This document shows positions 1-53,754 of a stretch of DNA of 64,000 nt, one piece after another. Source of the stretch: Sedimentisphaerales bacterium (lineage in GTDB: Bacteria; Planctomycetota; Phycisphaerae; Sedimentisphaerales; SM23-30). The stretch lies in assembly GCA_963666285.1 (NCBI GenBank), contig OY762712.1; one strand, 5' to 3'. Every line of letters starts with the position of its first letter. Position 1 is the stretch's first letter. The translations under genes and the position numbers were made by a program. The notes beneath the pieces are model-generated. The model saw only the letters and a list, made by a program, of their open reading frames with translations. It was not told the DNA's origin and did no database searches.

Positions 1-3000
1 CCCATAGCTTATCGACCAGATAGAATTTCTGCCATTTTTGTTCACCTCTGAACCATCGTTCCAGAGCCTGTTTGGATTCCATCTCAAATGAACCTTTATG
101 AGTACCACCCAAACCAACATATTCCAGGTATGGCTGTGACCGTTCCATATCATCGGTTATTTTATATGATAAAACCTTTTTCCAGGTAAACGGATTTAAG
201 ACGCCAAGCACACCATCGCCATCAACAAAACACTGTGCTGCGATAGTACGCATATGATGAGTCGGCAGAAACAACTTTATACCATTTATAGTATGGACAA
301 TTGTCCGGAAAGTTTTAACTACACCTTTACCGGTAACATTAACACTGTTTAGAGCCGCTGTCGGCCTATACAAGTCAGGATGAAGAATATAGCCGCTAAA
401 GATCGGTTCTTCGGTATCGCTGCCGGGCTGCAAGTAAAGTTTTCGCCAGCCTTTCACCTGGTCAAATTCCGCATCCCCTGCCTTGATAATACCACTGCCA
501 TAATACTTATCAACCAGATAATCACGCCAGCGGATCATAGCGGCCAACCTCCATATTGCAGCGACCTCTCTAAAAGCGTTAAGGGCAGGGTTGGTATCCT
601 GCAATTTTAACCCTAAAGCATGGGCATCAGCTACTGTAGGTATTTTCTTGTTTTTTATCATCTTCTGGGTAGTTGGATAATAACTGCTTAACTGCTCTTT
701 AGCTCGCTGTGGATCCTGATAAGAGCCATAGAAGTAATCGCTATAATACATCGCATCCATACCGAGACTATCCAGCAGTTCAAATGCCTTATCATATAAC
801 TGGCTTATATAACCTGCATATTCTCTTGCCCTGTCGGTAATTTCTTTTCGGGCGATCTCCTGCAATTCTTTTCCGCCATCAGTTTTGGCCTTACCTCGAT
901 AGCGGAATATATGCTCCTGCTGGTCGGGAGGGAGCTGCCCAATTGCCTCTGCCAGCTCCTTAAAGGTCATCTCCATATTCTCAAGCTTGTTCTGGCCAAA
1001 CTTCAGCATACCAACTTCAGGTGTAGATGCTAAACGCACAATTTCAGCGGTCACATCATAACCGAAAGATTTCTGGGCCATCTTATTAGGTTCAAGGACA
1101 TTGATGATCCCCCAATATAATGAAGCAGACTTTTGGAAACCGCCCTTGCCATACTTTTTAACCTGTTTCAAAATAGAGTGATTTGCTTTTGGCTCTGGTT
1201 CTTCATTGCTATTTTCTTGCTGTTTATCTCCCTCTTTCCCAAATAGCTTCTGAACATCCTCTGCTGTGGTATTATCTATACCTTTACCAGTTAGATATGT
1301 TCCGGGCCTGTTATCGGTTTTCTGATACTGGATGTGGCGGCCTTTTTCAATATTGTCAGATTTCTGGTTCCATACCTTACCGGAATACACCCTATTAAAT
1401 ATATCTCCAATATTTGACTTGCCGGTAATAGCAGTCCAAATCCTTCTGAAGAAATCCCTCACCTTCTTAAAATATGGATATCCTTTTGTATCTTGATTTG
1501 CTGCCCATCTGCCATAAGTCTCGGCAGCTTTTTCTTCATCGCCATTAAACCGCTTCAATACAATAGACCGCTCTTTCTCTGAAAGTGCTATATCCATAGC
1601 TGCATGGAACTGTTCGTGTGATAGTGTATCATCAGTAGCATAATAAGATGATAGTTTTATCATACCATCAAAATCTATCTGGCTGCCATTTTCCAAAGTG
1701 ATACTGCCTGGGATATTACTCCATAGGCCACGATAACCGTTTTTTTCACCACGACCGGCTATCTCAAGTTCAGCATTATTAACCTTAATAGTCTGGCCGT
1801 TTGGCAGAATAACTGCATATACTCCCTGCTGATCTGTTTGCGATACCTTATCAGGAGAGATACCAAATGCCTTTGCCAACCTTGCAGCATTTAATTTACT
1901 ACCTGTAAAAGTCTCTGCCAGAGCTATATATTCGCTATTATCAAGTCTGTCTAATGCTTCTGTATTAGCATCTGAACCCGGACCTTGTGACACCGCCCTC
2001 TTATTATCCGGGTTGCTATTTATAGAGCTTCTACGCATCTTGAACTCTCTGATAAGAGCCTCTGCATCCTTCCTGACAAAGCCTTCCTCTTCTAATGCTT
2101 TTTCCAGTTTATAGAGCAAATTATCAACAGTATCAGCCTTAAAGCTCCCCTCATTATTAAAGAAACAACCTACCCCTTTACCTTCCCGGTCACATTTAGT
2201 GCAGGTCCAGCCAGAATTAGTACCCCTTCCGGCGAGTTTCTTTTTACCGGAATCAACCGGACAGACATAAGGCTGTAAATTATCAGGTATGTTCTCCAGT
2301 TGATCTTCAGATAATAGCTTACTGCCAAGTTTTACCGGCAGAATAACCTGTATCCGGTCTGCATATTTTACCAGGTTATCGAGATCATCTTCCCCTTGAT
2401 AGGTAAAAGCAATAGGCAGATCATTATTATCTGCAATATGGGTATTAGTCCTGTCAATAGATAACAGCCTGACATTCCTCTTATCTACTTTAGCAAGCAA
2501 TTCCGGCCTTTTAGAGAACACCTGGCATCTGATACCATTGCGGTTAACCTCGTTTATCACCTCCACCCAATCTTCGCTCAGATCGCCGATATCGTTAAAC
2601 CTGAGAGCCTTATTGGCATCATGGTTAGCGGTAGGCTTATACTGGTTACTTATCATACGGCCCAGACGCTGTGGGTCCAGCGAAGCGGCAATATCAATAA
2701 TCTCACTTTTTATCATCGGCCCGGAATAACTGTAATTACCGCCGGTAGCATAACAGAAACGGGCGCAATCATCAGAAGGGCTGCAATGTGCCAGCGAACT
2801 GTTTACCGCCAGTGTCGGTTTAGCAGCCTTGCCGATAACACCGGTATCAACTATATAGGAAAATACACCTTCGATCCCATTTTCCTGCAACTGGCGATAT
2901 AGCTTCTCATTTTTAGTTTCTACAATATCAGTTTCCGGTATCTTATTATTCAGGATATCGATTATCTCATTACGCACTACCGCTCTTTTAGCAACTGCCC

Positions 3001-6000
3001 TGCCCCAATTGGTATCTTTCAGCTTTTCATATGAATCAAAGGTAGATTCAGGCAATACCTCAATATCACCGTAACTGCGTTTACGCAGCTGATAAGTGAT
3101 TTCAGGATTGTCTATATCGATAGGCTTATCCTGTATGGTATCGCTATTTAGAATTGACTCTGCCAGCGTCAGATCAACAGTATCTGGATTATCATAGATA
3201 TACTCTCTTAATATAGAAGCTCTATTAACAGCATTCTTGAACCATTCAATAATCTTGGCAAATAGTCTTGCCAGGGAACTATTACTTTCGACCTGTTTTT
3301 GCCAGTTATTTACTGCATCGGTTAGCCCTGCATTGGTATTTTTCCCCAGCCCTGCCAGCAGATAATCTGTCAGAAAATCACTGAGCCATTCGAGATTAGA
3401 CTTATCGTTTGTATAGCCGTCCAGATGCGATTCTTCAATCTGCTTTCTGAAGGCTTTAATCTCACTGTTCCTTTCGATATAGCTGACATCACCGAAATGT
3501 ATCTTTATTCTGGATTCAACCGCTTCATGGATTGCTGTAGTAGGATCAGAATTAGTAATAGCAAGCGAGATAACCGCTTTTTCATCGGCGATATAATTAC
3601 TACCTGAAACATCCACATCTTCTGGATTGACACCTTCTAAACCAGCTTCTTTTAATTTTTGCTCGATAAAACTCTCACGCTGATCGGCGGCAAGTTTACC
3701 TTCTGCAATAAGCTTATCAACATCTTGGGCCAGTGACCGGACCGCTTTTTCCAGTTTAATACCGGCATCAGGATTGACAGCTTTAATAATCTGCTCTAAA
3801 CTATCGCCGATAGCACTTAAATCAGGTTTATTTGCATCTTCCAGTAATATCTCTACATACCGGCGCTCATTTTTATTTACCTCCCAGGAATCGCTATCAG
3901 ACTTATCACCTGCCTTTTTAAGATGGTATCTGTTGACCGCCCCAACTTTCCTGCGAACGATCTCGGTATAACCATCATCTACCAACTCTTCTAGCCATTT
4001 GTGGGTAGTTATATTCTTACCCTTATAGCTGACATATTCACTTTCGAGGGTATCTATCAGATCTTCACGTTCTTTGGCTTTTCGGGCTTCTGCCTGTATC
4101 ATCTCCTGCTCATGCAGGTGTCTTTCATATTTATTTACCGCTTCCGATCCTGCCCACTCTCTTAGATGCTCGACAGTCCTTTTGGCTGTTTTAGGTAGTT
4201 TAGTACCGGTTAGCACCTCAAAGGCTTTTCTACTGGCCTTATTATGGATTGTAACATGACTTATAAGATTATTTAGGTCTTTATCCTGAATATACCCATT
4301 GATACGCCCTGCAATCTGATATGCCAGTTTGGCATTATGGCCTTTATAAGCTTTCTCAACCAGCTGCTGGTCATGCACTATCCTGTTGTGCCTTTCAATA
4401 TCATCACCTGTGGTATTGCGCTGCAGAACTTTGAATATCTCCATCGCCACCTTATCACTATCATTTTCGCCGGATTCCATCTGCCTGATAATATCTTCAG
4501 ATTCATCGATATTTTTCTGTAAGAGCTTGCGGCCATCATCTCTACGTTTAACCTGGTCATCTGACAGTTTTTCCTCTGGTTCAGGCTTTTTCTCTGCTGC
4601 TACTGAAGGTTTGGCCTGTTTTTGACTGCTGAGATATTCACCTTCCAGAACATCACTCCATTGCGGGATAGCCTTCTTTTCACCGGCTATATTTATTGGC
4701 ATGATAATAACCTTACCCACTGATTTACCGGAACTATCAATACCGCTTAGTAAGAAAGGACCATGATTATCTTTAGTGGTGTTGGCAGCTATTGCTAATG
4801 ACAATTTATCACTGCCAAGCTGACGCAATACCTTAACAGCATCCCTGAGATATGCTAGGTTGATACCAACATGAAAGTCTTTTACCGGTATCTTAATAGC
4901 ACGTTCAACTACATAGCCATCTGCTACAAAGGCGTTTGGATTGGCCTTTTCAGTAGCATTGGCAACTGCAACGATTCTATCTGCCTGGTCAGCTGATATC
5001 TCTTTTTCGATAGTTATTGTCTTACCCGGTACTACATCTGTCCAGCGGGGATATTTGCCCTTATGGGTAATAGAATAGCCATTTGCAGCTTTTTTATCTC
5101 TTTCATATATCTGCTCTGATTCTACTTCAGGGAATCGCTCTGCCAAACCTTCAGCTATCAGCATCCTTCTGCCGTCAGTTGCAACTACCTCACCGGTACC
5201 AGCAACAAAGAAAGTATCATTTATAACATACCTGCTCTGTTCAGTACCAGAATGGGTTAAGACAGTAGATACAAGCTGTTTGGTAGTATTAACTTTACCT
5301 ATTCTACTTACTTTTTTAGGTACAATAACAGTAAGGCCGTTCCTGGTATGCAGGGCATCTGATGCAACTTTGCGATGTTTTAGTGAAAATGCCTTACCGG
5401 ATTTTACCATCATCCATAAAAAATCATCCCCTGCTTTTTCCAACAGCCCGGCAGCTTCGGGCAATTCCAGTAATTTTATTTCAGAATTGTTAAGCTTTCT
5501 GCCTAATAGCTCTGATATCTCAGCTGCATACCGCTTGCGGTCAGTATTAGTTACTGACCTGTGACCGATTACCTTACCGCCATACCATTCGGGTGCATTG
5601 GCATGATCCTGGGCAGGATTATGCTTATCAGCTTTTTTTTCTTCCAGAGGTTCTGGCTTCTTATCTGGAACGGGAGCAGAAGATGACTTATTAACTGATT
5701 TTACTTTTTTTTCTTTTCCTGTTTTAATTTCATTCGATTTAGGTGCCGCTTCAGAATCAATTTCGTTTCGTTCATCTTCTGTAATCTCTCTGAAACGTGG
5801 ATTATTCAAGGCATTATATGGTCTGGTAGTACCAGGTGAATAATTCTTTTTCATCTGTTCTTCAGTATATGGTATATTAGAGATACTTCTTTCCGGTCGA
5901 GCCTTGATAACTTCCATTTCGGCAACACCATTCTTTTTGGTTCTACCTACTTTATAGATAGTTCCGGAATTTACATCAGCTACATAATCACCTACCGCAA

Positions 6001-9000
6001 ATGCTGCCGGGTTTTTTCCATTAGCCTTTTGAGGCTGTTCTATCCCTTTGTCTTTGAGATATTCACTCTGGGCTTCTATTACTTCAGCTTCGGTTTTATG
6101 CCATCTGTCGTTAATCTGATGCGGCGTATCACCTCTGAAATAGTAACCAGGTTTTCCAGAACGGGAATGAACATATATATCACCATCATTCAATCTATCA
6201 CTATAGTCAGGATATTTATCAGATAATCTCTCCCCTGATGGTTTCTTGCCTTTAACATCGACAATACCATCTATCCCCATAGTATTATCATTTCCAACAA
6301 CTATAGTATCATGGCCATGATCTACCTTTTTAATAGTTTTATATGTCTTTGAACCGGATACACGAACCTTATCGCCCACTTCAATATCGGTTATCTGCCA
6401 GCCATTTGCTGTTGTAGGCGTATATGGCTTAATTCCTGTTTTTTCAAACTCATCTAACTTATCAAAAGCAGCAAAAGTCTTTTTAAGGTTATCATAGGCA
6501 GAAGGTAGAATATCGGTATCAACTGAACCATCCTCAATATGTCTCAGGGAAACACCGGGTACATAAGGGGTAACATCACGTACATCCAGTTTACGGCCCT
6601 GTTTTTTGGCCTGTTCGATAATATCTTCGATCTGACCATCAGCTATATTTACGGTATTCTGCCTTAAACGCTCCAGCATGGTATTAACGGTCTTGATCTC
6701 TTTATCATACATTGATACAGGTATCTCAACTGTTTTACCTTTATCTGGACCGGCTACTACTTCTGCTTCAGCATAATCACCATAATAATCATCCTCACGA
6801 ATATTACCGGTTAGTTTATGTAATTGGGGGTCATACTTGATACGAGCATTATTCTCTGGCTCTTGCTTTTCTTCTGCCTTTACCTTTTTGGCAGATTTCT
6901 TCTTTTTGGCATTCGCTTTTTTACGTTTTTTATTGTCAACAGGTTTTGGCTTCTGTTTTTTATCGACAACACCATCACCACTATTATCTGGTTTATCCGG
7001 CAGTTTTGCAGGACTGCCACCTGCTTCATTATCATTATCGCCTTTTTGCTGTTGCTTCAGCTCGCGCAGACGATCATTAAGTTCCCTAATGATCTCTCGT
7101 TGTGTATCCGTTTGACGGTCCTGCATATCAAACTGCCAGAGCCTGTCTTCAATATCCTTGATCTCTTGTAATAGGGCATCAGTTGTTTTCTCGGATTGTT
7201 CCTGTTTTTTAATATCAGGTTCAGAATCTACGGTTTCAGTTGTTTCTTCCTGCTGACGGTTCTCTGGTTCTGTATCTTTCTGATCTTTTAATTCTTTATT
7301 TTCAGTTTGTTTTTGCGGTTCAACCACTAAATACGGAGTATCATCTAGCGGTTTATCTTTGCCCAGAACAGGCTTGTTATTTTTATTTAAGCGAACATAC
7401 AAGGTCTGGCCTTTTTCATTTGCCTTATCCTGGATACGGGAATATTCATCCACACTCAATTCTACGCCCAATTCCCCTTCACCTACAAACTTCCCGGAGC
7501 CTCCGTTGCTGACACCTTCAAAATTCTCCGGGATATGCTGATCGGTTGAATTAACCGTCTCAAATTCCGGCTGAACATATTTTCCTTCATTACCAATTAC
7601 AGTACCGACAGGATTAGTCTGGGCTTGAAGATATTCCTTGGCTACCTGGTTATTAGAAGATTCGATCTTGGCCTTGATAAACTGCTGCTGATTTTCATTA
7701 CCAAAATCATCCATGGTCAGGCCAAGCTCAAATAATCGCTGGATATCGTCACTGGAAGCTGAATTAGTCAGAACATCTTCCAGAGCAACTTCAGACATGG
7801 AATCTATACTTTCAGCATCGAATCTCCGGTTCTTTTCCGGGTCTATCTGCCGGGCGATAATCTGCCATCTTTTGCCCTTCGGTTCGATCTGGACATCGAT
7901 ATCATCAAATGCGCGATACAGCATACCTGCAATAGTATTAGCTGCTTCCTTAGTTTTAGCAGTCATTTTATAGCCGTCTTTACCCGGCTTGAGCCGCTTT
8001 GCCAGCGGTGTTGAGACTAGATCAGACCGCTGTCTTTGTGCGGTATAAGCCTCATTCATCTTGCGAGAGTTACCGGCAAGCTGTGAATCCTGCTCATATC
8101 CTTCCATATCTGGTATATCATACGGCTCCTGCCCGGCAACTTGCGGCAGTTCATCTTCCAGTGACTCTGCTGTCTTAAATGCCCTGTCATCCTGATACTT
8201 ATTATACTGACCTTCAATGACACTACCGGCTTTGCGAGCCGCTGCCGGGACCATTAGCACACCGGCTGTTGTCAAAAACTCTCTACCATCGGTCATATTT
8301 TCAATTGCCGCAAGCATCCGAGGCCCTAAACCAGCATCTTCACCAGCTCCGTAATCCTCAACTCCAGTTGCAGCACGGAGGATAGTGCCTAATTCTTCCT
8401 CCGACAGCTCCTCAATAAAACTGCCGACCTTGAGATTATCCCGCACAAAATCTGTAAACGGCCCCTGTTTAGCACCTAATTTATTATATACCTTCTCCAG
8501 ACCGGACAGTATTCTACCGGCAAACTGTGAACCAGGCAGCTTTTCCCCTATTTTGCCTATTATACCGCCTATCTTTTTACCGGCTGCGGTTATACCCTTA
8601 CCGGATATTTCGGTAAGGTTCTCGATATACATATCACCGGCAGCCTTGATAATTGACCTGCTGAAATCTTCAGGCCTCTGGATAAGTTCAAAACCGGTAT
8701 CAGTTAATTTATACTGGCCACTGTCAACGTAACGCTCTCCTGCATTTGCCATAATATCCGGTGTCATCTGGGCGGTTCTGGCTGTGGCATCAATACCAGC
8801 TCCAAGCAGTTTACCTCCTAATTGGACACTTTTATTTTTTAGAAACTTCTCAGCAGCATTCTTGCCTAAAATCTTTGTAATCAGCTTAACTGTGCTTTTT
8901 TCAGCACCTTCTTTGACTATTGATGCTCCCGGACCTGTTAAAGCAAATGTAGCAATAAAATCTGGTAATTCTAGCAGCCCCTGGATAATATCATTTGTGA

Positions 9001-9919
9001 TAGTGGTACCTCTAACCTCCAGTTCAGCCCGCTTATGGAGATATTCACTAACGATAGCAATATCCTTCTGCATCAGTTCAAGCTTCTGCTGTTCGGTCGC
9101 TTCTTCTTCACCTTCGTTATATGGATTTTTCCCCAGCATTTTATCAAAGACAGTTCGGCCCATACCGATAGGCATAGTCCTTTTAACCTTCAGGTTCTGA
9201 TATCGAACTGGATCACTGAGCCTGTCAACAGCAAGTTTCAGATCGGTACTGTTTTGAAGTGATACCAGAGTACCGACAACCGGAAACTTCTCTTTTATCT
9301 CCTTTTCAGACATTTTCTCCAGACCTTCTATCGCTCCTACTGGACCGGAATTCTCCCATTGATATATCTGCTCCGGCGTGAAATTCTCAGTCACCTGCGG
9401 GCTATACAGCATTTTCTGCATGGTCGGGTCTGGTTTTGAGAAAGGACCACCCTGTGGGATATTCTCTGCCCCTGCCATTGCATTTTTATACATATCATAG
9501 ACAGTCGGATTATCCAGGTTTCCGCTCATAACCTTGTCGTATCTGCGTGCGTGCTCTAGCTGCTCCGGTTTCATCGCTGCTCTGATTGAATCCGGTACAC
9601 CGGCCAAAGGATCATATTGCGGCCTATCTACAGGTTCTGTCATAACATCAGTTGCAAACTGCTCCAGAATAGGCTTGGCACTTATTTTCGCGACGGGTAA
9701 GCTACGCTCTTTTGCCCGATTCAATAGAAAACCGTCAGGAATATCCACCGCCGCCATTGCCGACGATAATCTATCCTGAACAATTGGGTTTACAGGTTTT
9801 TGCTGCGGTCCTTGCGCATTTCCTTCGAGGTTGGCCAGAACAGAATCAACATCAAAACTAATATTATTTTCAGGCTGGTCATCTTCAAGATTGGCCAGAA
9901 CATCATTTACATCTACCAT
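1..9919 (-). CDS. giant multidomain virion-associated (polyvalent-type) protein, N-terminal 3306 codons; stop lies left of the window
   Basis: ATG at 9919-9917 (MVDVNDVLANLEDD...). I translated the minus frame and codon-checked 5021-5188, 2744-2794 and 1604-1618 without meeting a stop. The track shows only short low-complexity antisense ORFs here, which fits an ORF omitted for lack of an in-window stop. It is the last gene of the structural operon. Confidence 0.8.
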   Translation of the reverse strand, partial: MVDVNDVLANLEDDQPENNISFDVDSVLANLEGNAQGPQQKPVNPIVQDRLSSAMAAVDIPDGFLLNRAKERSLPVAKISAKPILEQFATDVMTEPVDRPQYDPLAGVPDSIRAAMKPEQLEHARRYDKVMSGNLDNPTVYDMYKNAMAGAENIPQGGPFSKPDPTMQKMLYSPQVTENFTPEQIYQWENSGPVGAIEGLEKMSEKEIKEKFPVVGTLVSLQNSTDLKLAVDRLSDPVRYQNLKVKRTMPIGMGRTVFDKMLGKNPYNEGEEEATEQQKLELMQKDIAIVSEYLHKRAELEVRGTTITNDIIQGLLELPDFIATFALTGPGASIVKEGAEKSTVKLITKILGKNAAEKFLKNKSVQLGGKLLGAGIDATARTAQMTPDIMANAGERYVDSGQYKLTDTGFELIQRPEDFSRSIIKAAGDMYIENLTEISGKGITAAGKKIGGIIGKIGEKLPGSQFAGRILSGLEKVYNKLGAKQGPFTDFVRDNLKVGSFIEELSEEELGTILRAATGVEDYGAGEDAGLGPRMLAAIENMTDGREFLTTAGVLMVPAAARKAGSVIEGQYNKYQDDRAFKTAESLEDELPQVAGQEPYDIPDMEGYEQDSQLAGNSRKMNEAYTAQRQRSDLVSTPLAKRLKPGKDGYKMTAKTKEAANTIAGMLYRAFDDIDVQIEPKGKRWQIIARQIDPEKNRRFDAESIDSMSEVALEDVLTNSASSDDIQRLFELGLTMDDFGNENQQQFIKAKIESSNNQVAKEYLQAQTNPVGTVIGNEGKYVQPEFETVNSTDQHIPENFEGVSNGGSGKFVGEGELGVELSVDEYSRIQDKANEKGQTLYVRLNKNNKPVLGKDKPLDDTPYLVVEPQKQTENKELKDQKDTEPENRQQEETTETVDSEPDIKKQEQSEKTTDALLQEIKDIEDRLWQFDMQDRQTDTQREIIRELNDRLRELKQQQKGDNDNEAGGSPAKLPDKPDNSGDGVVDKKQKPKPVDNKKRKKANAKKKKSAKKVKAEEKQEPENNARIKYDPQLHKLTGNIREDDYYGDYAEAEVVAGPDKGKTVEIPVSMYDKEIKTVNTMLERLRQNTVNIADGQIEDIIEQAKKQGRKLDVRDVTPYVPGVSLRHIEDGSVDTDILPSAYDNLKKTFAAFDKLDEFEKTGIKPYTPTTANGWQITDIEVGDKVRVSGSKTYKTIKKVDHGHDTIVVGNDNTMGIDGIVDVKGKKPSGERLSDKYPDYSDRLNDGDIYVHSRSGKPGYYFRGDTPHQINDRWHKTEAEVIEAQSEYLKDKGIEQPQKANGKNPAAFAVGDYVADVNSGTIYKVGRTKKNGVAEMEVIKARPERSISNIPYTEEQMKKNYSPGTTRPYNALNNPRFREITEDERNEIDSEAAPKSNEIKTGKEKKVKSVNKSSSAPVPDKKPEPLEEKKADKHNPAQDHANAPEWYGGKVIGHRSVTNTDRKRYAAEISELLGRKLNNSEIKLLELPEAAGLLEKAGDDFLWMMVKSGKAFSLKHRKVASDALHTRNGLTVIVPKKVSRIGKVNTTKQLVSTVLTHSGTEQSRYVINDTFFVAGTGEVVATDGRRMLIAEGLAERFPEVESEQIYERDKKAANGYSITHKGKYPRWTDVVPGKTITIEKEISADQADRIVAVANATEKANPNAFVADGYVVERAIKIPVKDFHVGINLAYLRDAVKVLRQLGSDKLSLAIAANTTKDNHGPFLLSGIDSSGKSVGKVIIMPINIAGEKKAIPQWSDVLEGEYLSSQKQAKPSVAAEKKPEPEEKLSDDQVKRRDDGRKLLQKNIDESEDIIRQMESGENDSDKVAMEIFKVLQRNTTGDDIERHNRIVHDQQLVEKAYKGHNAKLAYQIAGRINGYIQDKDLNNLISHVTIHNKASRKAFEVLTGTKLPKTAKRTVEHLREWAGSEAVNKYERHLHEQEMIQAEARKAKEREDLIDTLESEYVSYKGKNITTHKWLEELVDDGYTEIVRRKVGAVNRYHLKKAGDKSDSDSWEVNKNERRYVEILLEDANKPDLSAIGDSLEQIIKAVNPDAGIKLEKAVRSLAQDVDKLIAEGKLAADQRESFIEQKLKEAGLEGVNPEDVDVSGSNYIADEKAVISLAITNSDPTTAIHEAVESRIKIHFGDVSYIERNSEIKAFRKQIEESHLDGYTNDKSNLEWLSDFLTDYLLAGLGKNTNAGLTDAVNNWQKQVESNSSLARLFAKIIEWFKNAVNRASILREYIYDNPDTVDLTLAESILNSDTIQDKPIDIDNPEITYQLRKRSYGDIEVLPESTFDSYEKLKDTNWGRAVAKRAVVRNEIIDILNNKIPETDIVETKNEKLYRQLQENGIEGVFSYIVDTGVIGKAAKPTLAVNSSLAHCSPSDDCARFCYATGGNYSYSGPMIKSEIIDIAASLDPQRLGRMISNQYKPTANHDANKALRFNDIGDLSEDWVEVINEVNRNGIRCQVFSKRPELLAKVDKRNVRLLSIDRTNTHIADNNDLPIAFTYQGEDDLDNLVKYADRIQVILPVKLGSKLLSEDQLENIPDNLQPYVCPVDSGKKKLAGRGTNSGWTCTKCDREGKGVGCFFNNEGSFKADTVDNLLYKLEKALEEEGFVRKDAEALIREFKMRRSSINSNPDNKRAVSQGPGSDANTEALDRLDNSEYIALAETFTGSKLNAARLAKAFGISPDKVSQTDQQGVYAVILPNGQTIKVNNAELEIAGRGEKNGYRGLWSNIPGSITLENGSQIDFDGMIKLSSYYATDDTLSHEQFHAAMDIALSEKERSIVLKRFNGDEEKAAETYGRWAANQDTKGYPYFKKVRDFFRRIWTAITGKSNIGDIFNRVYSGKVWNQKSDNIEKGRHIQYQKTDNRPGTYLTGKGIDNTTAEDVQKLFGKEGDKQQENSNEEPEPKANHSILKQVKKYGKGGFQKSASLYWGIINVLEPNKMAQKSFGYDVTAEIVRLASTPEVGMLKFGQNKLENMEMTFKELAEAIGQLPPDQQEHIFRYRGKAKTDGGKELQEIARKEITDRAREYAGYISQLYDKAFELLDSLGMDAMYYSDYFYGSYQDPQRAKEQLSSYYPTTQKMIKNKKIPTVADAHALGLKLQDTNPALNAFREVAAIWRLAAMIRWRDYLVDKYYGSGIIKAGDAEFDQVKGWRKLYLQPGSDTEEPIFSGYILHPDLYRPTAALNSVNVTGKGVVKTFRTIVHTINGIKLFLPTHHMRTIAAQCFVDGDGVLGVLNPFTWKKVLSYKITDDMERSQPYLEYVGLGGTHKGSFEMESKQALERWFRGEQKWQKFYLVDKLW

Positions 9920-9951
9920 TATATATAAATATCCTATCGATAGGGTTTATA

Positions 9952-13048: not shown

Positions 13049-15289
13049 CTATTTCCAAGCGAAAATCCTGATATCTGACGGATCAGCAACACCACCCCAA
13101 TTACCTGTACTGCCGCCAGGTTCTGTAGAAAACTGATATGTAGGATTACTGCCATCTATACCAAAATATATATACGATGATGTTACCTTATACACCGCTG
13201 CCCCATAATCACCGCCATGCACCGAATTTGCTTCATTTACTATTTCCGGGCTGGCGTGTGATCTTACATACAGCTTAAAATATGTAGGTACTACACCAAG
13301 GCCATGACTTACTTTATATGAATAGTTACTGACTAGCCCTGTACCAGATGCATTTACAGAAGCAATTCCACTGGATGAACTATTAAGCCAGCCACTATCG
13401 AAAAACTTACTGGATACAGAACCGTTCCCGGAAAACTTCAATGCCGCCGGGTGAATTGTATTTGATGATTCTATTGTGCAATTTCTTATGTAGGTTTTAT
13501 TGTAGCCGTCTATATAAGTGTTTCCATTGGTACTGCCACAATATAATAGAAAAGACATCACCCAACTGCCCGTACCATATTTACTACTGACTGATAAACC
13601 ACCAGGCGCCAGCCTTAACAGTGTATCTCTCGATGTTGATGTGCTGGAATTACGTATCTGGGCGGCATCGACAATAGCGGCTGATATCTCTATAATATCC
13701 TTATAACTGCTCTTATCATCTTCCATATACAGTTTACCGTCAGTTACATTGAAGTATGCCGTATTACTGCCTAAGAAACCCTCATCCACCCGTACAACAA
13801 CTCTGGTTGTATAGGCTGAATCTTCATAGACGGTATAACAGTGTATATACCTGTCAGATGCTTCAGTACCACCGGTACCAACGTAGAAATATCCCTTCTG
13901 CTGACCATTTACGGTATTCATCCCTAAAAACGCAGGCCATTGGTTAGCACTCGTATCGAAGAAACCAACGCCATTATGCCAGATATAACAGCCGGTAGAA
14001 TTAGCATCACTCCAGGTCTGACCAATATCGTTTGCGGCGATAATATCGTTTATCTTCTGATAACTACTGACATCCGGGATAGCATTATCAACATAAGTTG
14101 TAGTGGCATATCCTGCCAGACTGGGAATTGCATCATCTACATACGATTCAGTTGCATAACCTGACAAATCTGGGATAGAATCATCCACATAGGTCTCTGT
14201 CGCATACCCAGATAGAGAATTGCTTATCTTGGTATTTACCTCAGAAGCGGTATCATAACTATTTAATGTACTGGAAAGTTCGCTGCCGGTAACATAATCG
14301 GTAAGAGTTATCGATATCTGACCATCGGTAATGGTAGTATTATATACCCTGTCTTTGAGCAACACCCAACCAGAGCCATTAAACTGATACCTCTGGCCCG
14401 TTACATAATTATGGTTATCATAAGTGAAATCATCATTTATATGGACAATATCACCGGTAAGCGGTGTATCGGGCATATCATCGGCACTCTCGGCAATGAA
14501 ATTACTGATCTTATTAGCTATCATCTGCCAGTTGCCACCGTTATATTGATACATTCGACCGGCATCAAAAATATCGAAACTTGTATCAACATAAATGATA
14601 TAGCCATCAGTTGGATTTGCCGGCAATTCAGATATGTCTGATACATTACTGGAAAACTGCTGCTGACCGACAAGCTGCCAGCCGGCAGCGGTATAGCTGT
14701 AAACTGAACCTTTAGTATAGGTATCATCACCAACAGTAAAATCTGATTCAATATACAACATATCGCCAATCTTAGGCTCATCGGGCATATCAGATGCTTC
14801 ATTAGCTATCAGAATATTCTGCCGGTTGCCTATCTCCTGCCAGTTTTCACCATCAAAACTATAAACCTCCCCTTTTTGATAAATACCAAAATCCGCTGTT
14901 ATATAAATTAGATCGCCAATATCAGGATCTTCTGGCATCTCAGCTAAGCTTGCCGCAAAAGTTGATATTATCCCGGTCGCTTCTGTAGTAAATACCAGAG
15001 AGTTATTTTCCGGGTCAATAGTAATTGAACCGGCACCCGAAGATGAAAGTACAAGACTGCCCCCTGTCCCGGCTGATGTGATAACGCTGCCATCTTCTGT
15101 TATCATCTCGGTAAAGCCCAGTTGAGCCTGGATACGACTGCGCCTGCCGAAATCTGCCAGACCATCGTGTATCCGGTTCATTTGAGCTACAATCCTGTCC
15201 AGATATTCTTCCAGCGGTTCACCTGGCTGTCTGTATTCGATCTTAGATGCAGGAAGCATACGATCAATATGTAACCCTAAATCGGCCAT
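13049..15289 (-). CDS. tail fiber protein
   Basis: 746 aa. Four tandem ~45-aa repeats (P-[ED]-x-P-x-x-G-D-[LMI]-x-Y-I ... G-x-W-Q). Three consecutive GYAT-x-x-YVD-x-x-IP repeats typical of phage fibers. Start overlaps the terS stop. Confidence 0.75.
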   Translation of the reverse strand: MADLGLHIDRMLPASKIEYRQPGEPLEEYLDRIVAQMNRIHDGLADFGRRSRIQAQLGFTEMITEDGSVITSAGTGGSLVLSSSGAGSITIDPENNSLVFTTEATGIISTFAASLAEMPEDPDIGDLIYITADFGIYQKGEVYSFDGENWQEIGNRQNILIANEASDMPDEPKIGDMLYIESDFTVGDDTYTKGSVYSYTAAGWQLVGQQQFSSNVSDISELPANPTDGYIIYVDTSFDIFDAGRMYQYNGGNWQMIANKISNFIAESADDMPDTPLTGDIVHINDDFTYDNHNYVTGQRYQFNGSGWVLLKDRVYNTTITDGQISITLTDYVTGSELSSTLNSYDTASEVNTKISNSLSGYATETYVDDSIPDLSGYATESYVDDAIPSLAGYATTTYVDNAIPDVSSYQKINDIIAANDIGQTWSDANSTGCYIWHNGVGFFDTSANQWPAFLGMNTVNGQQKGYFYVGTGGTEASDRYIHCYTVYEDSAYTTRVVVRVDEGFLGSNTAYFNVTDGKLYMEDDKSSYKDIIEISAAIVDAAQIRNSSTSTSRDTLLRLAPGGLSVSSKYGTGSWVMSFLLYCGSTNGNTYIDGYNKTYIRNCTIESSNTIHPAALKFSGNGSVSSKFFDSGWLNSSSSGIASVNASGTGLVSNYSYKVSHGLGVVPTYFKLYVRSHASPEIVNEANSVHGGDYGAAVYKVTSSYIYFGIDGSNPTYQFSTEPGGSTGNWGGVADPSDIRIFAWK

Positions 15290-15861
15290 TATTCGGTGGA
15301 CTCCTCCCCTATCTGCGTTGCCATTTGCAGCATTTCAGTTAGCCGTTTAGCTCTTTCTGCCGGTGTAAGATCGATGATATCATCTCTTATAAGCTGTTTA
15401 CCGCCACTGGTAATATCAACCTTATTACCATAGACATCAGGCATACGTGATTGCAGATACAGTCTCATCGCCGGTACATCAGGTGGACAGTGCATTTTTT
15501 TGGTAACTTTCTTGGTTTTAGTAGTGTCAATAACCTCACCTGTTTTAGTTACCACCTGATCATCGATTGTTTCAGAGTGTTCTTCCTCATAATCGTAGCC
15601 TAAACAGCGGTCGATAAGTTTGCGTTCGATCTTCTCGGTAGCAAACTCACGTTCACCTTTCAATACCGCCTGTCGAAATTCGGGTTTTTCCTTTCTCCAT
15701 CGCATCCAGGTACGATATGAAATACCCATCGCATCACAGGCATCTTTTACCGACCAGCCAAGCTTCAGGAACTTGGTAGCCTGGGAAGGCATAACCTTAT
15801 CACAATATTTCTCATGTGCTACAGGTTCAGTTTTTTTACTTGTCACTTTCTTTTTTGCCAT
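15289..15861 (-). CDS. terS: terminase small subunit
   Basis: 190 aa. HTH region (GWSVKDACDAMGISYRTWMRWRKEKPEFRQAV) and C-terminal PPDVPAMRLYLQSRMPDVYGNK resemble terS families. The gene is coupled 1 nt (TAATG) to terL. Confidence 0.65.
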   Translation of the reverse strand: MAKKKVTSKKTEPVAHEKYCDKVMPSQATKFLKLGWSVKDACDAMGISYRTWMRWRKEKPEFRQAVLKGEREFATEKIERKLIDRCLGYDYEEEHSETIDDQVVTKTGEVIDTTKTKKVTKKMHCPPDVPAMRLYLQSRMPDVYGNKVDITSGGKQLIRDDIIDLTPAERAKRLTEMLQMATQIGEESTE

Positions 15862-17726
15862 TAGTAATAGTCATCCTCATCATCTTCATAGTGATCCGCA
15901 GGATGCCAGCGTCCCTCACAGCCGCCAATTACCATATCAGGTGCAAAACCACTATTATCATCTGTATTAGTTGCCGCTACCGTCCCCCTGTGTGCTGCCA
16001 GATGTAATAACATCTGGATAGCTATAAGCAGACTTATCACATCATCATCATGCTCACCGTCTGGATGGGTTGGCTTACCATTTTTATCAAATCGCCAAGC
16101 CGCTGCCTGTGAAATCGTCTGCCAGCAGTTGATCTTGACCATATTATCACGTATCCAATGCTGACCATCTGACACCATCATGGCACGAGATATCTTATCA
16201 GTACACCATCCTACCTTCTTTGTAGGTTTATCAGTCTCGGTATCATATATTTCACGGGTATATAAATTGGGATATTCCAGTCGCAATAAACCAGACCTCA
16301 CCGCACCACCGGAAGTATTATTAACTTCAAAGCCAAGCAAGGCGTTATTATAGAATCGGCCCAGCATATCCAATTGACAGGCATATAAATCAGGGTCAAA
16401 CCGCCCTTCAAGCTTCGCTACCATTTCACGGGTATCAGCACGCAAAACAGTTGCAGAATGACTATCCGGGTCTTTTGTTTCGGTTGGGTCCAGACCTTCG
16501 GAAGTGTCAGCTCCTATCACATAATCAATACCTATCAGCGGCATTTCCCATATTTTTAGCCACGGATATGGGTTTTCCGGCTGCTGGTCCAGGACAATAT
16601 CAGGTGCGGTCTTGGGCGGCCTTACACCATTAGTAATAGTAGAATCTGTAAACTGACCTTTTTTAAGCAGCGACTTACAACGCTTGTGCATCTGCTGAAG
16701 GATACCGGCATTAAATACCGGCCTGCCGGAAACCAGAAAGGCTTCATTATCACAACTGGGATATTCCTGTTTGAACTTATCCAGATCGCTCTGGCATTTA
16801 CCGGTGATAGTTTCCCTACGCCATTGTAGTTGTTCATCTGTCAGATCGTATAATTCTGCCAGTTCCTGTTCATTACCATAGACCGAATGTTCATAGTTGG
16901 TACGCTTAAAATCAACCGGAATCGGCGATTTATAATCCTCAAAGACATGCCACGGCAGAAATACCGCAATCCATTCTGTTTGGCCTTTGGGAAGTGTTAC
17001 AAACTTATTATCCGGGTCGAAACTGGTAGCACTGCACCACATATCATAAAATGTACCACCCAGACCATTTGCCGTACTTTCCAGAACTACACAAGTATCA
17101 GGTGTCATATTAGCATCCGGTACAGACTGCATAACGGCATTAAGACATTCACCGGCAAAAGGCCAAAAAGCCACCTCAGAGCCATGTATATAGTGGTTAG
17201 TACTTCCACGACCAAGTTCCGGGTTTCCTGCCGTCTGAACGGCGATAAGGGAATTATGCGGGCTTTGATATTCTATTTCCCGGCGGTTATTATACTTCTC
17301 GCTCCTGCGATACGGGTTAGCATCCTGCATCTGCTTAACCCTGCGAAATATATCGATAGAACTTTCCTGTTTATGGGCAACTATCATCGCCCGGCGATTG
17401 GCTTTTGTATTTATATCACAGAAGGAATCGGCAGAAGCTTCGGTTGTTATACCCATCTGCCTGGCTTTAAGAATAATCATCTTAATAGGCAGTCCAGCCG
17501 ACCGGAGCCTGTGCTTTACCTTCTGTACGATAATCTGGGCCTTATTAAGACGTAAAGGTATTTGCTTGCCCTCTTTATCGGTTATCAGGCAATGCACAGG
17601 AATCCAGTTAGCCGGTTCTGCCAATAACAGTTCTTCCAGCCGGGCCGCCATTGTGGGGTCTTTGGCAATCTCCTCAATTGCTTCCGGGTTTATCTGGGAG
17701 CTGATTTTGTCGGTTAAAGCTACCAA
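15861..17726 (-). CDS. terL: terminase large subunit
   Basis: 621 aa. ILKARQMGITT Walker-A-like motif and a C-terminal nuclease-type acidic motif (GEHDDDVISLLIA). TTG start preceded by AAGAGG. Confidence 0.85.
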   Translation of the reverse strand: MVALTDKISSQINPEAIEEIAKDPTMAARLEELLLAEPANWIPVHCLITDKEGKQIPLRLNKAQIIVQKVKHRLRSAGLPIKMIILKARQMGITTEASADSFCDINTKANRRAMIVAHKQESSIDIFRRVKQMQDANPYRRSEKYNNRREIEYQSPHNSLIAVQTAGNPELGRGSTNHYIHGSEVAFWPFAGECLNAVMQSVPDANMTPDTCVVLESTANGLGGTFYDMWCSATSFDPDNKFVTLPKGQTEWIAVFLPWHVFEDYKSPIPVDFKRTNYEHSVYGNEQELAELYDLTDEQLQWRRETITGKCQSDLDKFKQEYPSCDNEAFLVSGRPVFNAGILQQMHKRCKSLLKKGQFTDSTITNGVRPPKTAPDIVLDQQPENPYPWLKIWEMPLIGIDYVIGADTSEGLDPTETKDPDSHSATVLRADTREMVAKLEGRFDPDLYACQLDMLGRFYNNALLGFEVNNTSGGAVRSGLLRLEYPNLYTREIYDTETDKPTKKVGWCTDKISRAMMVSDGQHWIRDNMVKINCWQTISQAAAWRFDKNGKPTHPDGEHDDDVISLLIAIQMLLHLAAHRGTVAATNTDDNSGFAPDMVIGGCEGRWHPADHYEDDEDDYY

Positions 17727-31899: not shown

Positions 31900-33228
31900 T
31901 TAACTCCCCTGCTCCTCCAGTTCGGCTAATTCTCTTTCCAGACGATTGACACTTGACTGCCATATACGACTCATCGGCCCGCCATCTTTCAGCTTGGCGC
32001 GATAGTCAATTATCAACTCTCGTTTGGTAGCGATCTGATCGACAATTGGAATTTCAGGTTCCGGTTGTTCAAGCCTTGTTTGATTTGGAATATCTGGTTT
32101 CTGGGAAAATCGTTTTTGTTTCATCCAGGCCAGAGATTCTATACACCCGTCAAGACGACTAATTGCAAAAAGTTCTTTATTATCAGCGCATGTCACCACA
32201 TGTTTAACAAGGCCATAACCATATTCTTTTACTCGTTCAGATAGCCACTGAATACCTGCTGCCGGTTTAAGTCCCATACGTTTTGGATTGGCATTGTAAA
32301 ATTGAGTCAACAAGTCTTCTATTTTTTCCTTATCAATATTACGCTCACCGTCAGAAGAACTGGTAGTATTAATACGGGAATTAATGTTAGTGTTAATTTT
32401 TCGGACATCTTGGGATGTCTGATTATTTAACTTCCGGATGTCCGATATATTACCTTCTGGATGTCCGGTTTTTTTACTCTTAGATGTCCGGTTTTTTAAC
32501 CCATCGCTGTAAGTTCTTGATGAAACAGGCCATATATAATAGCCATTAGCGATATTTCCTTTGGAAGTTCTGCGTTTAGCAACTTCAACTAAGCTTACAT
32601 TTTCTAGCAATTTTAATGATTTAATAATTGTCGGCTTGGATATCATGCAGTCTTTTTCAATAGTAGAGATTTGCGGAAACGCAAAGCCGTCTTCAAAGTC
32701 AGCTCTATATAGAAGACCACAATAAATTTTCCATGCTGCGTGGTTCCGACCAAGAGATTGGAAGAAACCACTATCAAATAATTCACGACTAAGTCTCACA
32801 TGACCAGGTGTAGATGTCTGGTCAGCAATTGTAATTTCGATAGGTTTATTTGAAAGAACCTGCCCAGCGTATATAGGATCTGTTTCTGGCGGGTTGGTTT
32901 CAGGAATACTCAGATGATATATACTTGGTTGTTTACCTGATCTTGTTATTTGTTTTTGGCATATCAACAGGCGGTTGAGTTCAAGCTCTCGTATCAGTTC
33001 AGGAATACCTTGTCTTCGGATTCCACAATCTTTTGAAAGTTCAGAATGACTAATTTTGCATCGAAAGGTTTGGAAGTCTGCTGCATATAATAATCGGCAA
33101 TATATCCGCCAAGCTGAAGGCCGAACAAGTGCAAAAAAACCTTCATGAAAATGGCTAAGCCATAGTTTAAGATACCCTGGATTGGCTGGTCCCTGCCCAC
33201 TAAAATTGTAAACGTGCTTTTCGGTCAT
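31900..33228 (-). CDS. replication-initiator-like protein with two HTH_36-type winged-helix domains
   Basis: Internal duplication: WRIYCRLLYAADFQTFRCKISHSELSKDCGIRRQGIPELIRELELNRLL and WKIYCGLLYRADFEDGFAFPQISTIEKDCMISKPTIIKSLKLLENVSLV. Overlaps the upstream gene by 4 nt. Confidence 0.6.
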   Translation of the reverse strand: MTEKHVYNFSGQGPANPGYLKLWLSHFHEGFFALVRPSAWRIYCRLLYAADFQTFRCKISHSELSKDCGIRRQGIPELIRELELNRLLICQKQITRSGKQPSIYHLSIPETNPPETDPIYAGQVLSNKPIEITIADQTSTPGHVRLSRELFDSGFFQSLGRNHAAWKIYCGLLYRADFEDGFAFPQISTIEKDCMISKPTIIKSLKLLENVSLVEVAKRRTSKGNIANGYYIWPVSSRTYSDGLKNRTSKSKKTGHPEGNISDIRKLNNQTSQDVRKINTNINSRINTTSSSDGERNIDKEKIEDLLTQFYNANPKRMGLKPAAGIQWLSERVKEYGYGLVKHVVTCADNKELFAISRLDGCIESLAWMKQKRFSQKPDIPNQTRLEQPEPEIPIVDQIATKRELIIDYRAKLKDGGPMSRIWQSSVNRLERELAELEEQGS

Positions 33229-34172
33229 TTTCCATCCATGTGACTGACATTCGGATCAGCTTCCTTGCTATCCGATTTATCTATTTTAACTTGATTTATT
33301 TCTTCATGCAAGAGAAGATTTTCAGCTTCCCTTGCATTAATTTGCTGCGTTAGGTCTTCAATCTTACTTTCAAGTTGTGATTTTTCTAAGTCAATTTTGG
33401 ATAACTCAGTTTGCAATTGCTTTTTCTCTGCCTCAGTTGCCCTTTCTAATAGTTTGATCTTTTCCTCTCCATTTTTTGCTATTTGTTCTTTTTCCAATTT
33501 GAGACGTGATATTTCTTCAATATTATCTGTAATTGATTTTTCTGCCTGGTTTGCTCTTAATTGTTCTGTATTTGCTCTACCTGTCTCTATAATTTTACTA
33601 CTGTAAAGAAACCAAGATATTCCTATAGATACCGATATGATAAATAAAATTGAAGCTATATAGTAGTAGTTAAGTTTGCGACATTGTTTTTCTAGCTCTT
33701 GACATTCTTGTTCATATTGCCTAATTTCTTTTGTTTTGCTAGTTGCTAAAGCAGTTGTTTTCGCTAATGTTTCATTATCTACTTTAATGCTGTTTATAGT
33801 TCTTTGCAGCAATTCATTAACATCTTTCATATTAAGTGCTGGTTCAGTATTAGATGGTGGCTTATGAGCGTCACCGCCCTGCCCTTTCTCATAAGTGTCT
33901 TCAATATCGGTGTTTATACTGTGAGCGTTATCTTGAGCGTTATAAGAAACTGGATTTGGATTAGGTAAATCATTATCTGCTGCCACTATTCTTTTTTCTA
34001 ATAAAAACTCTCTGAGTTGTTCAATATCAAAGTATGTTATTTTTCCAACCTTAAAGCTCTCTGGGTCTCCCATACGTCTCCAGCGTCTTAAAGTGGCTTC
34101 GCTCACACCTAATATTGCACACCCTTCTTTTATGGTCTTGAATCGCTCTCTATCGATACTCATGTCGCTCAT
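33225..34172 (-). CDS. membrane-tethered MerR/excisionase-type HTH protein with a C-terminal coiled coil
   Basis: N-terminal KEGCAILGVSEATLRRWRRMG HTH. TM helix YYYIASILFIISVSIGISWFLY. About 125 aa of heptad-like charged sequence after the TM. Confidence 0.65.
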   Translation of the reverse strand: MSDMSIDRERFKTIKEGCAILGVSEATLRRWRRMGDPESFKVGKITYFDIEQLREFLLEKRIVAADNDLPNPNPVSYNAQDNAHSINTDIEDTYEKGQGGDAHKPPSNTEPALNMKDVNELLQRTINSIKVDNETLAKTTALATSKTKEIRQYEQECQELEKQCRKLNYYYIASILFIISVSIGISWFLYSSKIIETGRANTEQLRANQAEKSITDNIEEISRLKLEKEQIAKNGEEKIKLLERATEAEKKQLQTELSKIDLEKSQLESKIEDLTQQINAREAENLLLHEEINQVKIDKSDSKEADPNVSHMDGK

Positions 34173-40959: not shown

Positions 40960-41238
40960 ATGGGGTGTAATCGTAACACTGCAATTGTTTTGACAGCGTT
41001 AGCTGAAAAAACATGTTCAATTCAAGAACTTACAAAGTTAGTCGGTAATGTTTCCAGTGTCCGTTCAGCTATACACAGGCTGAGAAGATGGGGCTGGCAT
41101 ATTGTTATGTGTCAGTATTCTGTTGGTGTATGTGCATATTATATTGTCGATACCGATCAGAGGATAGCTGCCGGCAAATTATCAAAAGGCGATCTTAACC
41201 GTAAGATGATCTTGCCTTCCAGGAAGGGGGGTAAATAA
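40960..41238 (+). CDS. small winged-helix protein (excisionase/regulator candidate)
   Basis: 92 aa. CSIQELTKLVGNVSSVRSAIHRLRRWGW is HTH-like. Coupled 1 nt (TAATG) to the integrase. Confidence 0.5.
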   Translation: MGCNRNTAIVLTALAEKTCSIQELTKLVGNVSSVRSAIHRLRRWGWHIVMCQYSVGVCAYYIVDTDQRIAAGKLSKGDLNRKMILPSRKGGK

Positions 41239-52647: not shown

Positions 52648-53754
52648 AGTATAGCATCCTTTCAGTTTTGCTACATCAACTTCTATCCTCAACTGTTCAC
52701 GTTGAACAGTTTTCTCATAAGGCTGAAAAAACTCACTCTATACAGTTCAACTAACTCAATCACACTCTTTGTTTGCTGGAAATGCCCATAAAAAAGGGGC
52801 ACCACCTACACATTTCACTGAGGTCCGGCAAAGAACCCTAGAAGATATGTAAAGCAGTACCCGTTCCGGGTACTGTCTCTTTTACACACTTCTATATAAA
52901 ATTTTGCCGATTTCAGTGAATGCGATAAAAGATCAGTGATCTTGTAATATTCAATTGTCACGAAGTCACAGCAGGGAATTAAAGAAGATAAATCCCTTGT
53001 ATGCCAGCTCCGCAGTATTTTAATCCTAAGCCATACGATTATGTATGTCAAAGAATAATAGGTTGGTTTCATTATTCTTTCCTTCTGACTCCATCATAAG
53101 TGTAATATATTTCCTACATTTACATTCCATTGATAATCATCAGGCCAACGCAATAGACAAACTCTAAATTACCATAAATGCCCTATCTAAATCAAGTAGA
53201 AAATCAGTATAAAAAAATACTAAAAATTCACTATCTATATAATTTCTAATAATTTATGAAAAGCCGACCAGCTTTCGCCTGCCATTTCCCAGATACACTC
53301 TGAAACACTCATTAAGTTTTCAGCATTGAATCATGTGCTACTTTATATAAATTATTTATTTCACGCAACTTATAGTGTTTTTAGCATGGCAGGCGGCGCA
53401 CAAAAAAACAGAAGCCATTAAGGGCGCTACACAGTCATGCTCACTAGAGGCCCGCTAAAGCCCTTGCAGAAACACAACATTTATAGCACCCTCAGCAACC
53501 TCTGTATGAAATCAGGGTTTCTGAGAGTGCCGTTGCTGACATTTCTGCAATAAAAATTTAGCGATTTCTAGTGAAACATCTAAACGGTACATCCAAATTG
53601 TCAAAATGTATTATGCCATCCTTTTGGGGCTATTTCAATATCTTTTTCCAGTAGGATGGTTTTTGTTTCATAATTCTTGATAAATTTCGTTAGAATATGT
53701 AATATAGGAAAATTGAATGATTTATGTTACTTATGATATATTTATGGAGTGTTT

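Follow-up and report, generated by a model that had tools for sequence, protein, structure and literature searches.

A domain derived from the bacterial β sliding clamp DnaN inside a giant phage protein, with the partner-binding pocket apparently retained

The 64,000-nucleotide stretch of DNA analysed here (contig OY762712.1; referred to below as the window) encodes on its minus strand a giant phage protein, and a segment inside this protein—called the module throughout this article—has genuinely evolved from the bacterial β sliding clamp DnaN. To our knowledge, every known partner of the clamp inserts a clamp-binding motif (CBM) into the hydrophobic pocket located between domains II and III of DnaN, and the four motifs that drew attention to the module are exactly the segments forming this CBM pocket. 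A tentative proposal, drawn from the sequence, is that the module may represent a non-ring clamp derivative that has retained the pocket and docks host proteins equipped with a CBM.

The giant protein and its four DnaN-like motifs

The reading frame of the giant protein is open from position 9946 to position 2, with its first ATG at 9919, and it runs off the start of the window, so that the open reading frame (ORF) carrying the module (2..9919, minus strand) covers at least 3306 amino acid residues (aa). Besides the open frame itself, the ORF is supported by a metagenomic ortholog (P0001), which is 92% identical and 3527 aa long. The end of the window copy aligns to residue 3098 of P0001 and, given the length of the ortholog, about 430 C-terminal residues should lie outside the window.

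The initial annotation, made from the sequence alone, had pointed to four peptides following the order and approximate spacing of the hallmark motifs of DnaN, and its order, spacing and residue numbering have all been confirmed: the four peptides are found in order in one minus-strand frame (5188-4688) and start, counted from the ATG at 9919, at aa 1578, 1623, 1685 and 1735. Motif 1, VVATDGRRMLIAEG (5188..5147), contains T1581, G1583, R1584, R1585 and M1586, corresponding to T172, G174, H175, R176 and L177 of the E. coli clamp, whereas motif 2, YPRWTDVVPGK (5053..5021), has P1624, D1628 and V1629 in the places of P242, R246 and V247. Motif 3, GINLAYLRDAVKVL (4867..4826), provides N1687 and Y1690 as counterparts of N320 and Y323, and motif 4, GKVIIMPINI (4717..4688), provides I1738, M1740, P1741, I1742 and N1743 as those of V360, M362, P363, M364 and R365.

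Homology to DnaN

Searches using the window sequence alone were not significant. It gave no DnaN match in Pfam at E<=1, did not retrieve DnaN from the PDB by phmmer, and reached just 12.6 bits (E=0.049) with TIGR00663, the cutoff of which is 137.65 bits; it thus stayed below all the curated DnaN thresholds, i.e. those of PF00712, PF02767 and PF02768 as well as that of the TIGR00663 equivalog. A word-indexed protein search with the window sequence also found nothing, the same search having missed even the 92%-identical ortholog. Taken by themselves, these results would be compatible with four short motifs that look alike by chance, or with a frame or strand wrongly chosen.

The evidence for homology comes from the family. 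A phmmer scan of 1.84 billion protein representatives retrieved 12 proteins, of which P0011 was rejected as a family member, being an unrelated 85-aa tandem-repeat protein; a homologous region of ~200-280 aa is present in 11 retrieved proteins with sizes of 762-4543 aa. The family alignment of 12 sequences served as the source of both a profile and an AF2 model. When the profile was compared with the PDB (E<=10), 53 of the 55 sequences found were β clamps (best E 5.6e-12), with an in-register alignment of about 200 residues that begins at DnaN residue ~131-139 and reaches the MPMRL of the C-terminus. The comparison of the family alignment with a DnaN alignment by hhalign yielded a probability of 99.3% (E 7.1e-21) and covered DnaN residues 144-363. 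Only canonical three-domain DnaN proteins were retrieved by the profile from 5.8 billion proteins, and PF02767 was matched independently by three of the 12 family members.

The AF2 model (pLDDT 75.2, pTM 0.76) exhibits the DNA-clamp fold. In a Foldseek search of the PDB with this model, the ranks 1-15 were all occupied by DnaN (E 8.5e-7 to 2.4e-5, prob 1.0), PCNA chains appearing only from rank 16 onwards (E>=5.9e-4, TMq ~0.3), i.e. behind every DnaN chain. The clamp-like fold suggested in the initial annotation is thus borne out by the model, while the profile match to the DNA_pol3_beta domains that it proposed as a check fails for the window sequence alone but holds for the family profile, for hhalign and for the three members matching PF02767. 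The profile, hhalign and Foldseek results, together with the long in-register alignment, refute a chance likeness or a frame artefact, which can be regarded as practically excluded.

Domain organisation of the module

The whole module spans aa 1434-1763 (4631..5620, minus strand) and is bounded by two linkers rich in K, E and P (5621-5716 and 4568-4630, minus strand); the BLAST and phmmer matches with other giant proteins extend from aa ~1458-1468 to ~1742-1784. Domain I is missing, the 58 upstream residues being helical or linker. Its place is taken by an N-terminal helical extension (aa 1488-1545; 5285..5458, minus strand) with a [DE]D[FY]LxM motif and with helices that AF2 predicts for residues 2-7, 11-19 and 26-40 of the model; ~7 of the 12 family members conserve the extension, for which DnaN offers no equivalent.

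The following part (aa 1546-1622; 5054..5284, minus strand), delimited by the AF2 secondary structure and the alignment with DnaN, resembles a truncated half of domain II. It consists of helix 1 and three strands, RYVIN and VVATDGRRM included, and then of just two strands, both short; helix 2 of domain II, lining the inside of the ring, is absent, and this part is ~25 aa shorter than in DnaN. Concerning domain III, its equivalent (aa 1623-1744; 4688..5053, minus strand) extends from YPRWTDVVP to IIMPINI and is topologically complete, with the β-α-β3 unit present twice, although strands 2-4 are shortened and there are small insertions. As judged from the model, the module is not a whole clamp, but a truncated domain II followed by a complete domain III: of the three clamp domains present in a DnaN chain, only domain III is topologically complete here.

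The clamp-binding pocket

Within the clamp of E. coli, subsite I of the CBM pocket is formed by R152, L155, T172, G174, H175, R176, L177, P242, R246, V247, V360 and M362, and subsite II by H175, N320, Y323, V344, M362, P363, M364 and R365 (PMC11139829); solvent-exposed residues of DnaN are conserved mainly at the sites binding partners or DNA (PMC11139829). In the module, 10 of the 18 pocket positions are identical to those of E. coli (R1563, T1581, G1583, R1585, P1624, V1629, N1687, Y1690, M1740 and P1741) and five more are changed conservatively (I1566, R1584, M1586, I1738 and I1742). The equivalents of T172, M362 and P363 are invariant in the family, and pocket residues account for 11 of the 21 best-conserved columns, the remainder being mostly their immediate neighbours. 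In terms of the mean BLOSUM62 score against DnaN, calculated for 11 family copies, conservation amounts to 3.15 in the 18 pocket columns and to 0.31 in the 161 other aligned columns (Mann-Whitney p=2e-7), and the corresponding within-family values are 3.01 and 0.53 (p=1.5e-7), but this contrast is inflated by the fact that the alignment was anchored on the four motifs.

This inflation is one of several points weighing against a pocket preserved for its ligands. The remaining three of the 18 positions—D1628, T1714 and N1743—differ from R246, V344 and R365, these being positions that vary among bona fide DnaN proteins, too. The motifs also pack the junction of domains II and III, so that the conservation of the pocket may be partly structural and not ligand-driven. 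Moreover, the chain runs on past IIMPINI, whereas the free C-terminus of DnaN sits at the edge of the pocket, and the conserved [DE]D[FY]LxM helix of the N-terminal extension might plug the pocket. As for the charge, the module is net basic in nine of 12 copies, whereas domains II-III of DnaN are mostly acidic, yet the difference is modest and two module copies are acidic.

Loss of the ring interface and the short phage relatives

The hydrophobic residues at the ring interface of the E. coli clamp are I78 and F106 in domain I, and I272 and L273 in domain III (PMC11139829). The equivalents of the latter two in the module are E1657 and K1658; most of the 11 family copies have polar residues at these positions, where all eight DnaN proteins compared have hydrophobic ones. 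Judging from the sequence, what DnaN requires for the ring, i.e. domain I and the hydrophobic interface of domain III, is apparently lost in the module.

Reduced clamp derivatives keeping the pocket motifs are also found as free-standing short phage proteins. The family phrog_3007 was matched by nine of the 12 family members (best E 3.3e-14), its match with the window module (E 2.2e-5) covering just 45 of the 190 profile positions, and phrog_947, labelled 'DNA polymerase processivity factor', was matched by eight; in a tblastn search against phages, the module of P0010 alone retrieved short phage DnaN-like genes. A representative of phrog_3007 is p08 of the Shigella phage EP23 (L001 2983-3495), a protein of 170 aa annotated as 'DNA polymerase III beta subunit' and encoded among structural genes, but on the opposite strand; gp7 of the Sodalis phage SO-1 is another phrog_3007 protein. 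The 170-aa mini version occurs in Dhillonvirus phages. EP23 p08 is related to E. coli DnaN at E 5e-12 by BLASTP and is made up of domain II and, from domain III, of the second half alone; preserved in it are RYYLNG, ASDGHRL, GRFPDWRRV and GFNGAYLSD, and it terminates in IMPMRL. By its sequence, it seems to retain little more than the elements of the pocket. Since EP23 p08 is a reduced DnaN by sequence, the label 'RusA-like Holliday junction resolvase' found in RefSeq and PHROG is probably a propagated misannotation. It should be noted that the phrog_3007 proteins are separate small genes ending, like DnaN, with MPMRL, whereas the window module is internal, continues past IIMPINI, and differs from them also by its helical N-terminal extension, its full domain III and its fusion within a giant protein. 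The same fold is shared by many phage 'PolIII beta-like processivity factor' proteins of 180-250 aa present in BFVD.

These BFVD proteins could equally be quoted in favour of a genuine encircling clamp, according to which the module would assemble into a PCNA- or gp45-like trimer, either after proteolytic release or through trimerisation of the giant protein, and serve as a processivity factor or DNA tether. The module amounts to approximately two clamp domains, as in PCNA and T4 gp45, and P0009, a protein of 2061 aa from a JGI metagenome, carries two module copies (residues ~940-1136 and ~1400-1640); furthermore, an HExxH motif elsewhere in the giant protein, described below, could mean self-processing. 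On the other hand, domain II is devoid of its inner-ring helix, the positions of I272 and L273 are polar, the module lies between long linkers in a chain exceeding 3300 aa, no clamp loader is seen among the large ORFs of the window, and the EP23 relative, with its 1.5 domains, cannot build a canonical ring. An encircling clamp is, from all this, very unlikely.

Other giant proteins carrying the module

The module is essentially the sole region common to the window protein and the other giant proteins, and it therefore behaves as a shuffled domain. Its carriers, all of them rare metagenomic singletons, contain various other domains: LPD38 is present in P0003, P0008 and P0012, LPD5 and LPD1 along with GGDEF in P0005, ART-PolyVal along with MutS_I in P0009, and a GHKL ATPase in P0012. 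The last one, of the MutL/Hsp90 type, adjoins the module (P0012 residues 1363-1500). Both MutS and MutL belong to the classical proteins that bind the clamp, which is why the co-occurrence of MutS_I or the GHKL ATPase with the module may be meaningful.

A clamp fold captured by such shuffling could, in principle, be a mere relic, serving now as a spacer or structural domain of a virion protein. Many domains with no clear role have gathered in giant virion proteins, and both the three altered pocket positions and the packing role of the motifs at the junction of domains II and III would agree with that. It is, however, just the module that otherwise unrelated giant proteins have in common; at least 11 divergent carriers, 20-30% identical, have preserved it, the T, M and P at surface positions of the pocket being invariant, and its independent reduction to 170 aa in Dhillonviruses has preserved exactly the elements of the pocket. 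A relic is therefore considered quite unlikely.

The domains listed above are hallmarks of the polyvalent proteins, which have been proposed to 'jump-start replication' and to counter host systems (Iyer et al. 2017, PMC5512222). As in those, a giant multi-domain protein is encoded in the late/structural module of a phage (PMC5512222), and with at least 3306 aa, the multi-domain, phage-encoded window protein has the size of a polyvalent protein. The best structural match of the module in BFVD is a 'Large polyvalent protein-associated domain-containing protein' (E 1.1e-11). By their sequences, the carriers seem to fit the concept of polyvalent proteins.

A further point to be counted on the negative side is that the window protein itself has no significant Pfam domain of polyvalent proteins, whose typical domains include MPTase, LPDs, ART, MuF and methylase-helicase. 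Unlike the catalogued polyvalent proteins, it shows only a sub-threshold match of a Cys-rich region to GP88 (PF17338; E 8.6e-5, 22.9 bits, the cutoff being 24.4), seen likewise in P0001, and the LPD14 match of this ortholog is sub-threshold, too (E 0.017). No Pfam LPD model matched the module, either that of the window or those of the family members. The tblastn searches of GenBank phages and PLSDB plasmids with the window module and two relatives revealed no polyvalent relatives, a megablast search of phages with 20 kb of the window gave no match, and a search for related loci found nothing among genome contigs and only P0003's own contig among viral ones.

Several other features of the giant protein deserve mention. 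At its N-terminus (aa 3-32; 9824-9913, minus strand), there is a direct peptide repeat, DVNDVLANLE and DVDSVLANLE, with a spacing of 20 aa. An extremely basic stretch, KKRKKANAKKKKSAKKVK, occupies aa 997-1014 (nucleotides 6878-6931) inside a long, charged, low-complexity region. The Cys-rich region mentioned above, CSPSDDCARFCYA, with Cys clusters downstream of it, lies at aa 2369-2474 (2498-2815, minus strand). The HExxH motif (SHEQFHAAMD), at aa 2768-2772 (1604-1618, minus strand), is preceded by predicted strands and followed by predicted helices; the region could, by its sequence, be a zincin-type peptidase resembling the self-processing MPTase of polyvalent proteins, but it has no match in Pfam and its AF2 model (pLDDT 42.8) was unusable. 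The whole giant protein had no match in the PDB.

Phage gene context

The window contains genes for a portal protein, a major capsid protein, the large and small terminase subunits, a replication initiator/helicase loader and an integrase. The tyrosine integrase (41238-42272, plus strand; phrog_1, E 1.8e-46), the DnaD/O-like replication initiator-helicase loader (31900-33228, minus strand) and an excisionase-like regulator (33225-34172, minus strand) point to a temperate phage. Among the large ORFs of the 64-kb window, neither a DNA polymerase nor a clamp loader was recognisable, and no tRNA genes were found in the window. The phage probably needs the replicase of its host, since it has an initiator/helicase loader, yet no recognisable polymerase.

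The order of the genes in three independent carriers bears on how the giant protein is delivered. In the contig of the ortholog P0001 (64,891 bp), the giant gene follows the packaging genes and three mid-size ORFs and precedes genes for tailspike-like β-helix proteins; in those of P0003 and P0010, it comes as the final large gene behind the capsid and SU10-type adaptor genes, preceding a β-helix gene in the latter. We take this position to be that of the internal/ejection proteins in podophages (cf. the arrangement of T7 gp14-16 and gp17). Based on the position of the gene and the polyvalent domains of the other carriers, the giant protein is probably packaged and delivered together with the DNA.

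In the window, three paralogous right-handed β-helix proteins of 1128, 1003 and 907 aa are encoded on the minus strand (42799-46185, 49681-52692 and 57830-60553, respectively), two of them with DUF11, their genes lying in the part with a lower GC content (~36%). Because the ortholog contig has β-helix genes directly downstream of the giant gene, those of the window are probably tailspikes or depolymerases and not host genes; for the same reason, the integrase together with the drop in GC at ~42 kb was rejected as a prophage/host junction. An ORF of at least 752 aa (61743-63998, plus strand) with a GLUG motif (E 6e-21) and a Peptidase_M26_N region runs off the end of the window. Ribosome-binding sites of the GGAGG type precede 25 of the 37 window ORFs, which, along with the GLUG and M26 domains, hints at a host from Bacillota.

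It should also be mentioned that the order of the terminase genes is unusual for a packaging module: the large one (15861-17726, minus strand) is transcribed first, followed by the small one (15289-15861, minus strand), both being downstream of the portal and capsid genes. In the ortholog contig, a DNA methylase gene (PF00145; 3443-4615) is situated between the small terminase gene and the three ORFs preceding the giant gene, while the window has no ORF of methylase size at the corresponding place.

Possible function of the module

A CBM of the form Q-φ-x-[LM]-[FL], or of the hexameric form, does not occur in the giant protein and is seen twice, against ~8 expected, across 13 relatives; in the other ORFs of the window, there is no terminal CBM. 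An intramolecular CBM as the ligand of the pocket was rejected owing to this absence from the giant protein, and the ligand is, for the same reason, probably provided in trans. In the mechanism proposed, the module would act as a non-ring surrogate of the clamp and its pocket would dock host proteins carrying a CBM, the candidates being the Pol III α subunit or PolC, the 'wrench' subunit δ of the clamp loader, translesion polymerases, MutS and MutL, and Hda. Acting in cis, it would bring host enzymes to the incoming phage genome, or hold them there, without any clamp loading. Among the roles considered by the initial annotation, a mimic of the clamp engaging clamp-binding proteins is thus favoured, whereas a ring-forming oligomer or DNA tether is disfavoured by the missing domain I and the polar interface.

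It is known from other phages that ejected proteins enter the cell in few copies per virion. An action in cis is favoured because the few injected copies would enter along with the DNA. A landing pad acting in cis is favoured also because the phage seems to lack a polymerase of its own and the module is net basic in most of its copies, and because the herpesvirus proteins UL42 and UL44 offer a precedent for non-ring, basic clamp folds that hold a polymerase.

The retained pocket could alternatively make the module a decoy, i.e. an inhibitor titrating CBM-bearing host proteins off the real clamp and arresting replication, mismatch repair or translesion synthesis. The conservation of the pocket applies to the decoy just as well, the sequence not discriminating between the two, and the free-standing 170-aa version of EP23, being devoid of further domains, is hardly capable of anything beyond competition for ligands. 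A global titration is, however, stoichiometrically hard with few copies, unless the target is very scarce or the protein acts after late expression as well. One possible target is the δ subunit of the clamp loader, which binds monomeric β ~50-fold tighter than the dimer (PMC11139829), and the clamp hub is a known target of phages, as exemplified by the complex of Gp168 with the β clamp (7EVP). Altogether, a decoy is an unlikely role for the module.

With regard to recruitment in cis, we infer four elements, namely the ligand of the pocket, the monomeric state of the module, its delivery with the virion and the recruitment rather than inhibition of the host proteins. The idea that an injected giant polyvalent protein carries a loader-independent 'portable clamp pocket', which would capture host replisome or repair proteins via their CBMs just as the DNA enters, and which would have been miniaturised independently in Dhillonviruses (170 aa), is offered as a plausible, albeit tentative, suggestion.

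Comparison with known systems

The module is homologous to DnaN (PF00712/PF02767/PF02768; 1MMI/2POL) over residues ~131-366 of the latter and shares with it the fold and the four motifs; it differs by the lack of domain I and of helix 2 of domain II, by its polar interface, its internal position and its net basic charge. With neither the three domains nor the ring interface, and with scores below the curated thresholds, it is not classified here as a sliding clamp, but as a clamp-derived domain. The trimeric clamps PCNA and gp45 are not its closest relatives, since DnaN structures match far better.

Two herpesvirus proteins, the monomeric UL42 of HSV and UL44 of HCMV forming a C-shaped dimer, are two-domain, non-encircling and positively charged, and hold the polymerase via a peptide-binding site (PMC9690074). 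They show, as a functional precedent, that a clamp fold can work with neither ring nor loader; they belong, nevertheless, to the PCNA-related lineage of eukaryotic viruses and are separate proteins, and no specific sequence relationship between them and the module was found. The phage protein Gp168 (PDB 7EVP) addresses the same host hub, but it is a small inhibitor that binds the host clamp, whereas the module copies the docking surface.

The text of Iyer et al. (2017; PMC5512222) on polyvalent proteins contains no occurrence of the words clamp, DnaN, sliding or PCNA. In the literature searched, no clamp-like domain in injected or virion proteins, no phage mimic of the clamp and no link between polyvalent proteins and the clamp were found, which is no proof of their absence. 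The initial annotation had regarded a clamp-like fold fused inside a structural or ejected phage protein as an arrangement not known to have been described; this can be upheld for the fusion context, and also for the pocket-only logic, both of which appear to be undescribed, but short free-standing DnaN-like proteins of phages have already been annotated. Based on the above, the polyvalent proteins appear to gain a new, clamp-derived type of domain, and the clamp a new, pocket-only derivative.

Biological meaning

The β clamp is a hub coordinating bacterial polymerases, mismatch repair and the control of replication, and its pocket is a target of antibiotics. If the proposal made here is true, a copy of only the pocket would be a new way to hijack or block the host replisome, and the module would represent a previously unrecognised class of host-takeover modules that mimic the hub at the centre of DNA metabolism in bacteria. 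The catalogue of the polyvalent, i.e. injected, proteins would gain a domain directed at replication, and a plausible function would be given to those misannotated phage genes that now bear the label 'DNA polymerase III beta subunit' or that of a 'RusA-like resolvase'. Minimal monomeric pocket domains of this kind might, in addition, be used as baits for CBM proteins or as scaffolds for the screening of inhibitors.

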